From assembly GCF_000026545.1 (NCBI RefSeq), contig NC_011601.1: a stretch of 64,000 nt of DNA; one strand, 5' to 3'. This DNA comes from Escherichia coli O127:H6 str. E2348/69. Its GTDB lineage: Bacteria > Pseudomonadota > Gammaproteobacteria > Enterobacterales > Enterobacteriaceae. The notes beneath the pieces were generated by a model. It saw only the letters and a list, made by a program, of their open reading frames with translations. It was not told the DNA's origin and made no database searches. Below, piece after piece: positions 25,003-29,892 of the stretch. Numbering within the stretch: the first letter of the stretch is position 1; each line of letters begins with the position of its first letter. Both the position numbers and the translations under genes were made by a program.

Positions 25003-25794
25003 ATGCCTGAAGGCCCGGAGATCCGCCGTGCAGCGGATAACCTGGAGGCGGCGATCAAAGGCAAACCACTAACTGATGTCTGGTTTGCCTTCCCGCAGTT
25101 AAAATCTTATCAATCACGACTTATCGGTCAACACGTTACCCATGTGGAAACGCGTGGTAAGGCGTTGTTAACTCATTTTTCCAACGACTTAACGCTCTAC
25201 AGCCATAATCAGCTTTACGGCGTCTGGCGCGTGGTTGATACCGGCGAAGAGCCGCAGACCACGCGAGTACTGCGGGTAAAACTGCAAACGGCTGACAAAA
25301 CCATTCTGCTTTATAGCGCCTCGGATATTGAGATGTTGACCCCGGAACAATTGACCACGCATCCGTTTTTACAACGCGTTGGTCACGATGTGCTGGATCC
25401 GAATCTGACGCCGGAGGTGGTAAAGGAACGATTATTGTCGCCGCGCTTTCGTAACCGTCAGTTTGCTGGATTACTGCTCGATCAGGCGTTTCTGGCAGGA
25501 CTTGGCAATTATTTGCGGGTGGAGATCCTCTGGCAGGTTGGGTTGACCGGAAATCATAAAGCGAAAGATCTCAATGCGGCGCAACTGGATGCACTCGCAC
25601 ACGCGTTACTGGATATTCCGCGACTTTCTTACGCTACGCGGGGCCAGGTGGATGAAAACAAATATCATGGGGCGCTGTTTCGCTTTAAGGTTTTTCATCG
25701 TGATGGCGAACCGTGCGAACGCTGTGGCGGCATCATTGAGAAAACCACGCTGTCATCGCGCCCGTTTTACTGGTGCCCTGGCTGCCAGCACTAG
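25003..25794 (+). CDS. nei: Endonuclease VIII (Fpg/Nei DNA glycosylase)
   Basis: 263-aa ORF with N-terminal MPEGPEI catalytic motif and C-terminal zinc finger (CERCGG…CPGCQ). Confidence 0.95.
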
Positions 25795-26837
25795 GCCGAA
25801 CGCTTCGGCGCATAGGTTGAAATAAACCGTGCGATGGCAGGCCCCGTCAGCAAAATACTGAACAGGCGCAGGGTTTGCATCGCCATTATGAGCGCCATAT
25901 CGGCATTGCTCCCTGCGGCGATGACCGCCACGGTATCAAGCCCGCCGGGGCTGGTGGCGAGGTAGGCGGTCATAAAATCAATATGCATAAACCGGGTCAG
26001 CCCCCACGCCATACCCGCACAAATAGCCAGCAGAGCAAAAATCGACAGCAGGATTTGCGGTAGCGGGCGCAATGCCCGCAGTAATATTTGCTTATCGAAA
26101 CCAAGACCAATCCGCCAGCCAATTGCCATATATGCCATCGCCAGCAGCCATTCCGGGAGTTCGATGGTGATGAGCTGACCAGACTGGAGCACTGCGCCCG
26201 CCAGCATCGGGATGAGCATCGTGCCGGAAGGAAGACGTAGCAAGCATCCCGCCGTACCGGCAACGACCGCGAGCAAAATCGTAAGCAGGAGATTAATGCT
26301 CACTGGCGGGAACCAGACGATCTGCTGGTTAACCGCTTCAGCGTTATCGCCCAGCATCATGCGGGTGACCAGAACAGCGGCCCCCGCGACGAACAGCACT
26401 CGCAGATATTGCATAAACGCCACCAGGCGAATATCTGCGCCGTAATCTTGCGCCATAGCGACCATTGCCGCCGCGCCGCCAGGAGAAGAACCCCAGGCAC
26501 CGGTATTTCCAGGCAGTGAGCTATAGCGCACCAATAACCAACCCACGATGGCGCTGGAAAGCAGCGTCACCAGTAAAATCGCAAGCACGATCGGCCAGTT
26601 GACGGCCAGCGTGGTGAGAATCGAACCAGTGAGGTTTTGTGCAATCATGCAGCCAAGAATGGCTTGGGCAGCGAGAAAAGCGGAGCGGGGAAGTTGCAGA
26701 GTGACTCCGCGCATACTGAAGATGATCCCCGCGATCATCGGGCCAAGCAGGAGTGCCGCCGGGAGATGTAAAGCGAGGAAGCCAATAGAAAGGAGAAGTG
26801 ACAGAACACATAACATTCCCCACTGCAATACAGGCAT
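25791..26837 (-). CDS. abrB: AbrB-family putative membrane transporter/regulator
   Basis: 348 aa from [12 protein letters not shown]…; polytopic membrane protein; start trimmed from the 363-aa supplied ORF. Confidence 0.8.
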
Positions 26838-27120
26838 TCTTCGCTTCCTCATTATTTTATCTTTGGTGTATCGATACAGCATAAAGAAAGCTGGGTCTGG
26901 AAAAAATAACGGTAATCAAGGAAAAGGGGAAAATCAGCAATAATCTGAATACGTTGCCCTTTCCGGCTGAAAAGGGCGTCGTGTTAAATCAGTTATAGTT
27001 AATCTTAAAAAGTACCACTGTATCGAAGGGACCCACCGCGATGGGAGTGCCAGGTGTGGACGATAATTCAGCCGTATAGATTTTTTCGTAGATCAGCATA
27101 TCACTGGTGAAATCGGCGTA

Positions 27121-27363
27121 TTAAGCATATTTATTGAATGTATAAGGCGAGGCGTTTTCATCCAGTATACGTAGCTTCAGACCATTACCAATCAACAATG
27201 CTTTATCTTCTTCAACCAACGTTTTTTCGGTATAAAACGAGGAGCTGACCTTAAATCCGTCGGTACACTGGTCATTTTGCGATTTTGTTGTCTTGATACT
27301 GAATGTTTTCGACATTGTGTGGCGGCGAATATCCAGTAAGTTAAATTTACCCAAATCAATCAC
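27121..27363 (-). pseudogene. Short ORF in the abrB-gltA gap, possibly a remnant of the ybgOPQD fimbrial operon
   Basis: 80-aa ORF with no signal peptide or usher/chaperone motif; the whole gap is about 630 bp where K-12 (from memory) carries a roughly 5 kb fimbrial operon. Confidence 0.25.
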
Positions 27364-27448
27364 CAGTGTTTCCGGTGAAATATTTTTTCACCATTATTAA
27401 TGGGTATTTGCATCTGGTTTAATTTTTACAATTTTTTATGTTCAGCCA

Positions 27449-27482
27449 TATAAAAAGAACCCGCTCTATTAAAGGCGGGTCC
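27449..27482 (-). terminator. gltA intrinsic terminator
   Basis: Hairpin acccgc…gcgggt followed by a T-run on the minus strand, just downstream of the gltA stop. Confidence 0.6.
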
Positions 27483-27510
27483 GGAAAGTGAACGGCTTAG
27501 CAATCAACCA

Positions 27511-28794
27511 TTAACGCTTGATATCGCTTTTAAAGTCGCGTTTTTCATATCCTGTATACAGCTGACGCGGACGGGCAATCTTCATACCGTCACTGTGCAT
27601 TTCGCTCCAGTGGGCGATCCAGCCAACCGTACGTGCCATAGCGAAGATCACGGTGAACATAGAAGACGGAATACCCATCGCTTTCAGGATGATACCAGAG
27701 TAGAAATCGACGTTCGGGTACAGTTTTTTCTCGATAAAGTACGGGTCGTTCAGCGCGATGTTTTCCAGCTCCATAGCCACTTCCAGCAGGTCATCTTTGG
27801 TGCCCAGCTCTTTCAGCACTTCATGGCAGGTTTCACGCATTACGGTGGCGCGCGGGTCGTAGTTTTTGTACACGCGATGACCGAAGCCCATCAGGCGGAA
27901 AGAATCATTTTTGTCTTTCGCACGACGAACAAATTCCGGAATGTGTTTAACGGAGCTGATTTCTTCCAGCATTTTCAGCGCCGCTTCGTTAGCACCACCG
28001 TGCGCAGGTCCCCACAGTGAAGCAATACCTGCTGCGATACAGGCAAACGGGTTCGCACCCGAAGAGCCAGCGGTACGCACGGTGGAGGTGGAGGCGTTCT
28101 GTTCATGGTCAGCGTGCAGGATCAGAATACGGTCCATAGCACGTTCCAGAATCGGATTAACTTCATACGGTTCGCACGGCGTGGAGAACATCATATTCAG
28201 GAAGTTACCGGCGTAGGAGAGATCGTTGCGCGGGTAAACAAATGGCTGACCAATGGAATACTTGTAACACATCGCGGCCATGGTCGGCATTTTTGACAGC
28301 AGGCGGAACGCGGCAATTTCACGATGACGAGGATTGTTAACATCCAGCGAGTCGTGATAGAACGCTGCCAGCGCGCCGGTAATACCACACATGACTGCCA
28401 TTGGATGCGAGTCGCGACGGAAAGCATGGAACAGACGGGTAATCTGCTCGTGGATCATAGTATGGCGGGTCACCGTAGTTTTAAATTCGTCATACTGTTC
28501 CTGAGTCGGTTTTTCACCATTCAGCAGGATGTAACAAACTTCCAGGTAGTTAGAATCGGTCGCCAGCTGATCGATCGGGAAACCGCGGTGCAGCAAAATA
28601 CCTTCATCACCATCAATAAAAGTAATTTTAGATTCGCAGGATGCGGTTGAAGTGAAGCCTGGGTCAAAGGTGAACACACCTTTTGAACCGAGAGTACGGA
28701 TATCAATAACATCTTGACCCAGCGTGCCTTTCAGCACATCCAGTTCAACAGCTGTGTCCCCGTTGAGGGTGAGTTTTGCTTTTGTATCAGCCAT
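27511..28794 (-). CDS. gltA: Citrate synthase
   Basis: 427-aa [36 protein letters not shown]…. Confidence 0.97.
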
Positions 28795-29502
28795 TTAAGG
28801 TCTCCTTAGCGCCTTATTGCGTAAGACTGCCGGAACTTAAATTTGCCTTCGCACATCAACCTGGCTTTACCCGTTTGTTATTTGGCTCGCCGCTCTGTGA
28901 AAGAGGGGAAAACCTGGGTACAGAGCTCTGGGCGCTTGCAGGTAAAGGATTTATTGATGACGAATAAATGGCGAATCAAGTACTTAGCAATCCGAATTAT
29001 TAAACTTGTCTACCACTAATAACTGTCCCGAATGAATTGGTCAATACTTCCACACTGTTACATAAGTTAATCTTAGGTGAAATACCGACTTCATAACTTT
29101 TACGCATTATATGCTTTTCCTGGTAATGTTTGTAACAACTTTGTTGAATGATTGTCAAATTAGATGATTAAAAATTAAATAAATGTTGTTATCGTGACGC
29201 AGATCACTGTTCGGGATAAAAACCGACAAACTATATGTAGGTTAATTGTAATGATTTTGTGAACAGCCTATACTGCCGCCAGGTCTCCGGAACACCCTGC
29301 AATCCCGAGCCACCCAGCGTTGTAACGTGTCGTTTTCGCATCTGGAAGCAGTGTTTTGCATGACGCGCAGTTATAGAAAGGACGCTGTCTGACCCGCAAG
29401 CAGACCGGAGGAAGGAAATCCCGACGTCTCCTGGTAACAGAAAGTTAACCTCTGTGCCCGTAGTCCCCAGGGAATAATAAGAACAGCATGTGGGCGTTAT
29501 TC

Positions 29503-29892
29503 ATGATAAGAAATGTGAAAAAACAAAGACCTGTTAATCTGGACCTACAGACCATCCGGTTCCCCGTCACGGCGATAGCGTCCATTCTCCATCGCGTTTC
29601 CGGTGTGATCACCTTTGTTGCAGTGGGCATCCTGCTGTGGCTTCTGGGTACCAGCCTCTCTTCCCCTGAAGGTTTCGAGCAAGCTTCCGCGATTATGGGC
29701 AGCTTCTTCGTCAAATTTATCATGTGGGGCATCCTTACCGCTCTGGCATATCACGTCGTCGTAGGTATTCGCCACATGATGATGGATTTTGGCTATCTGG
29801 AAGAAACATTCGAAGCGGGTAAACGCTCCGCCAAAATCTCCTTTGTTATTACTGTCGTGTTTTCACTTCTCGCAGGAGTCCTCGTATGGTAA
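29503..29892 (+). CDS. sdhC: Succinate dehydrogenase cytochrome b556 subunit
   Basis: 129 aa from [15 protein letters not shown]…; the supplied ORF begins 5 codons upstream. Confidence 0.93.

Follow-up and report, generated by a model that had tools for sequence, protein, structure and literature searches.

Gene content between abrB and gltA

The window (the whole stretch of 64,000 nt from Escherichia coli O127:H6 str. E2348/69, contig NC_011601.1) has a gap between the genes abrB and gltA; its length is 628 bp if counted from the longest abrB ORF, or 673 bp if counted from the abrB start annotated in RefSeq. The longest abrB ORF reaches position 26882; this boundary was adopted in a preliminary description of the window, made from the sequence alone. 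A 2.3-kb stretch around the gap (25700–28000) matched the E2348/69 chromosome with 100% identity. Coordinates of the features are given in Table 1. The GC content was 0.36–0.41 over positions 26850–27600 versus 0.52–0.59 in the flanking genes, and the hairpin of the gltA terminator had dG of −23.2 kcal/mol (z = −2.95). Coordinates, GC content and hairpin bore out what had been reported for the gap: a short AT-rich interval with an 80-aa ORF on the minus strand and with the terminator of gltA.

Table 1. Features of the abrB–gltA region (coordinates in the window)
Feature	Coordinates	Strand	Comment
abrB (AbrB-family regulator)	25791..26837	-	intact left flank; RefSeq start codon at 26837
abrB–ybgO intergenic spacer, retained	26838..26988	.	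collinear with the K-12 spacer, 88% identity
ybgO' pseudogene remnant	26989..27384	-	YbgO residues 223–353 and native stop; ybgO homology ends at 27381/27382
36-aa ORF	26989..27099	-	ybgO frame past the nonsense codon, residues 318–353
Premature stop TAA	27121..27123	-	GAA (Glu310) in K-12 and three other genomes, including 06-00048 and Trh52
80-aa ORF	27121..27363	-	YbgO residues 230–309; opens at an internal GTG (Val230), closed by the nonsense codon
Perfect 7-bp inverted repeat GGTGAAA-tattt-TTTCACC	27374..27392	.	created by the junction; ybgO supplies the left arm, the spacer upstream of ybgD the right
Deletion junction	27380..27382	.	both ancestral flanks abut here
gltA-proximal ybgD–gltA spacer, retained	27382..27510	.	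129 bp; 97% identity to 06-00048/G5, 72% to K-12
gltA intrinsic terminator	27452..27482	-	hairpin ∼27457–27482, then U-run
gltA (citrate synthase)	27511..28794	-	intact right flank; stop codon starts at 27511

The abrB gene of the window has 95.5% nucleotide identity to K-12-type abrB, and the gltA protein product (WP_000785834.1) has the same sequence in K-12-type genomes. The gene order nei-abrB-[ybg]-gltA-sdhCDAB is common to the window and to genomes with the operon intact; the chromosomal position of Ybg is conserved. On the other side of gltA, in the gltA–sdhC divergent promoter region, RefSeq has a conserved hypothetical protein of 35 aa, WP_001305582.1 (∼28999–29106, minus strand), which was found in every genome inspected.

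The Ybg operon and its remnant

The preliminary description had placed a four-gene chaperone-usher operon here in K-12. Indeed, in the K-12 derivative ER1709 the genes ybgO (353 aa), ybgP (chaperone), ybgQ (usher) and ybgD (subunit) lie between abrB and gltA, on the same strand as gltA. The same order was also seen in strains 06-00048 and G5; in 06-00048 ybgO is frameshifted, with the rest of the operon intact. Wurpel et al. 2013 (PMC3559732) classed the Ybg fimbriae as ‘core-associated’ chaperone-usher fimbriae, described the cluster as ‘not intact in many strains’, and found it mainly in commensal and diarrhoeagenic strains.

At the same locus the window differs from K-12 in retaining only 131 of the 353 ybgO codons, interrupted by a premature stop. 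No usher, chaperone or major subunit gene was found within 26883–27510, which contains just the 3′ fragment of ybgO and spacer. Similarity to a fimbrial protein is confined to this fragment: translation of 26989–27381 could be aligned by BLASTP to residues 223–353 of K-12 YbgO without gaps, with 120 of 131 residues identical (92%, E = 5e-88). The match of the remnant to the Pfam family Fimbrial (PF00419) was weak, covering residues 8–131 with 17.7 bits, below the cut-off of 25.6; the intact YbgO itself scored only 25.3 bits against the same family (residues 218–353). Judged by sequence, the remnant is the orthologue of the C-terminal pilin domain of YbgO.

In RefSeq the remnant appears as H4J01_RS17830, ‘type 1 fimbrial protein; internal stop; incomplete; missing N-terminus’. 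With codons 1–222 deleted, it has no start codon in the native frame, no signal peptide and no N-terminal domain; it is a pseudogene and not a functional fimbrial subunit. The premature stop is due to a single altered base at position 27123, A on the plus strand where other genomes have C. The 80-aa ORF had been noted to lack a signal peptide, and this is in line with the missing 222 codons; it had also been considered a possible fusion left behind by a deletion. The latter suggestion was wrong, as the ORF does not reach across the junction: all of its DNA (27121–27363) is derived from ybgO.

Deletion junction

Alignment with genomes carrying the intact operon placed both endpoints of the missing segment at 27380–27382. 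On the left side, collinearity with the ybgO 3′-end extends as far as 27381/27382 (seen in BLASTN alignments as well as in direct comparison of register); on the right side, collinearity with the ybgD–gltA spacer, in its gltA-proximal part, sets in at 27380/27382. The missing segment has a length of 4,742–4,748 bp (∼4.74 kb); it comprised ybgO codons 1–222, ybgP, ybgQ, ybgD and ∼257 bp upstream of ybgD.

We did not find an intact operon with the ybgO allele of the remnant (the closest intact ybgO 3′-end was ∼91% identical); therefore, the ancestral sequence was reconstructed from related haplotypes. The figure for microhomology at the junction, 0–3 bp, depends on which haplotype stands for the ancestor: 3 bp (‘ATA’ in both flanks) in comparison with 06-00048, and 0 bp overlap in comparison with G5. 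Every base at the junction is accounted for either by ybgO or by the ybgD–gltA spacer: there is neither an IS end nor a target duplication nor filler. As such marks are missing, we infer that simple illegitimate recombination was the likely mechanism.

The 36 bp at 27382–27417 have no match in K-12 and were considered as candidate filler DNA left by a more complex event; this was rejected, since in 06-00048 and G5 the 36 bp are joined directly to the rest of the spacer, at 97% identity. The spacer downstream of gltA exists in two haplotypes (the K-12 type and the 06-00048/G5/B2 type), which are ∼72% identical to each other, with gltA itself at 98%; of the complete genomes, roughly 1,900 have one form and 2,440 the other.

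When junctions were simulated in the intact sequence of 06-00048, 0.19% of them made an inverted repeat such as the one at the junction of the window. The observation was made post hoc, and the repeat may be a chance product, or else a sign that a palindrome assisted the deletion. If the endpoints were not random, situated as they are at the base of the 7-bp inverted repeat and next to the ATA direct repeat, the event would resemble palindrome-assisted slippage models, though acting across 4.7 kb. Separately, the deletion brought gltA, a strongly expressed gene, within 630 bp upstream of abrB; read-through could then alter abrB expression in the genomes with this junction, and the loss would be pathoadaptive rather than neutral. 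To these two ideas we assign a very low probability.

Distribution among genomes and order of events

The same junction was found in ∼545–557 of 5,426 complete E. coli genomes, about a tenth. Its carriers include Nissle 1917, ABU 83972, ATCC 25922, NRG 857C, S88 and MS7163, all of which we take to be phylogroup B2 strains. The pseudogenes of the first five are equivalents of H4J01_RS17830. In ∼77% of complete genomes the ybgO 3′-end is present without the junction (4,763 genomes matched, less the 557 that have the short form).

A 61-mer identical to that of the window and including the TAA codon occurs in 266 of 545 carriers; thus, no more than about half of the carriers have the nonsense codon. 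Unlike H4J01_RS17830, the remnants in S88 and in O84:H7 Trh52 are truncated with no internal stop. Therefore, the deletion preceded the nonsense mutation; the change of GAA to TAA arose later, in a sub-lineage.

The pattern of substitutions is in agreement with this order, though the counts are small. Comparison of the remnant with intact alleles gave 14.5 nonsynonymous and 28.5–29.5 synonymous differences (dN/dS of 0.11), indicating that this divergence was built up while the gene was under constraint. Between the remnants of E2348/69 and Trh52 we counted five nonsynonymous differences (besides the nonsense change) and one synonymous (dN/dS about 1.4); these counts are tiny, and the 5:1 ratio fits relaxed constraint after inactivation.

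All in all, we consider it almost certain that a single ancient deletion of ∼4.74 kb made this interval, a scar in which most of the cryptic Ybg operon is gone and a dead 3′ fragment of ybgO is left. The preliminary description had read the interval as the result of a deletion; the ybgO homology and the mapped endpoints support this reading. The following course of events may be proposed. The operon is read in the direction ybgD, ybgQ, ybgP, ybgO towards abrB. Illegitimate recombination, suggested by the 0–3 bp of microhomology and by a junction free of mobile elements, would have acted once. The deletion removed the genes for the major subunit, the usher and the chaperone as well as the part of ybgO coding for the signal peptide and N-terminal domain; the ∼257 bp lost upstream of ybgD are where the operon promoter would be expected. 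What was left is a non-functional fragment with the pilin domain only, downstream of the gltA terminator. The fragment then drifted as a pseudogene, and the sub-lineage which gained the nonsense codon is the one containing E2348/69. The new stop together with the internal GTG gives rise to the spurious 80-aa ORF.

Alternative explanations

The short interval could in principle be the ancestral state, with ybgOPQD inserted in other lineages. In its favour, the locus is AT-rich and highly variable between strains, with other occupants and other deletions known. However, the window has the 3′ third of ybgO, 131 codons in frame with the native stop, cut in mid-gene at a clean junction; therefore, the short form is derived, as an insertion cannot make such a fragment at an empty site. 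The presence of the ybgO 3′-end with no junction in most complete genomes and the core-associated status of Ybg (Wurpel et al. 2013, PMC3559732) also speak against an ancestral gap. The polarity of the truncated gene effectively refutes this explanation, and we give it practically no weight. It is also conceivable that a mobile element, such as IS1, brought about the deletion and has since been lost. IS1 insertions and one IS1-bounded deletion do occur at this locus in other strains; on the other hand, the junction in the window is seamless, and we regard an element that left neither an end, nor a duplication, nor filler as quite improbable.

A further question is whether the remnant is expressed or has a function. 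The 80-aa ORF, or its 131-codon version with no stop in S88-type strains, might be an expressed orphan peptide with a pilin domain, or else a regulatory element under selection. The remnant persists at 98–100% identity in >500 genomes, and the junction has created a hairpin; both could be taken as signs of function. However, persistence is explained by young, clonal B2 lineages. A peptide with no signal peptide has no entry to the chaperone-usher pathway, of which the chaperone and usher genes of the locus are gone too. The GTG start of the 80-aa ORF has no convincing ribosome-binding site as read from the sequence, and the remnant sits behind the gltA terminator. Carriers of the nonsense mutation tolerate it, and the excess of nonsynonymous differences between remnants points the same way. 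A promoter of its own was rejected, as a single weak sigma-70-like site was seen inside the ORF versus a mean of 2.4 in shuffled sequence. A hidden non-coding RNA was likewise rejected: a scan of 26000–29600 with the Rfam 15 covariance models gave no match at E <= 1. A functional product is thus highly improbable; we infer that the remnant is not expressed, and the best-supported reading is that of a silent pseudogene scar.

Significance for annotation and strain comparison

The feature is ordinary and already known, both from the RefSeq pseudogene annotation and from Wurpel et al. 2013 (PMC3559732). The present analysis adds the junction at base level, shows how often it occurs in complete genomes, and establishes which came first, the deletion or the nonsense mutation. 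Beyond correct annotation its importance is small: neither the 80-aa nor the 36-aa ORF should be called as a gene. Strains with this scar, E2348/69, Nissle 1917, ABU 83972, ATCC 25922 and S88 among them, cannot make Ybg fimbriae from this locus. The loss agrees with published surveys, in which Ybg, often disrupted, was seen chiefly in strains outside B2 that are commensal or diarrhoeagenic. For telling lineages apart within E. coli, the exact common junction could be a simple marker.

Other states of the locus

The abrB–gltA region is a multi-state locus with independent losses of the operon. Strains TBU0218, WB61 and ST131 strain 751 are like the window in having lost the Ybg operon between abrB and gltA. 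They differ from it in endpoints and mechanisms (the junction of the window has no mobile element), and the events are therefore independent. The deletion in WB61 (NZ_CP020025.1) is complete, with 268 bp left between abrB and gltA; the deletion in TBU0218 (NZ_AP027721.1) is bounded by IS1A and left 309 ybgO codons. The 584-bp interval of the window at 26927–27510 had no match in 663 of 5,426 genomes. In ST131 strain 751 (NZ_CP103562.1, 3503085–3511115) neither ybg genes nor the scar are present; an island of ∼8 kb stands in place of the sequence from 26927 onwards and ends 46 bp short of the gltA stop. It carries genes for a GntR/FadR-family regulator, an RraA-family protein, a Zn-dependent alcohol dehydrogenase, an SDR oxidoreductase, a split UxaA-family hydrolase and a TRAP transporter (three genes).
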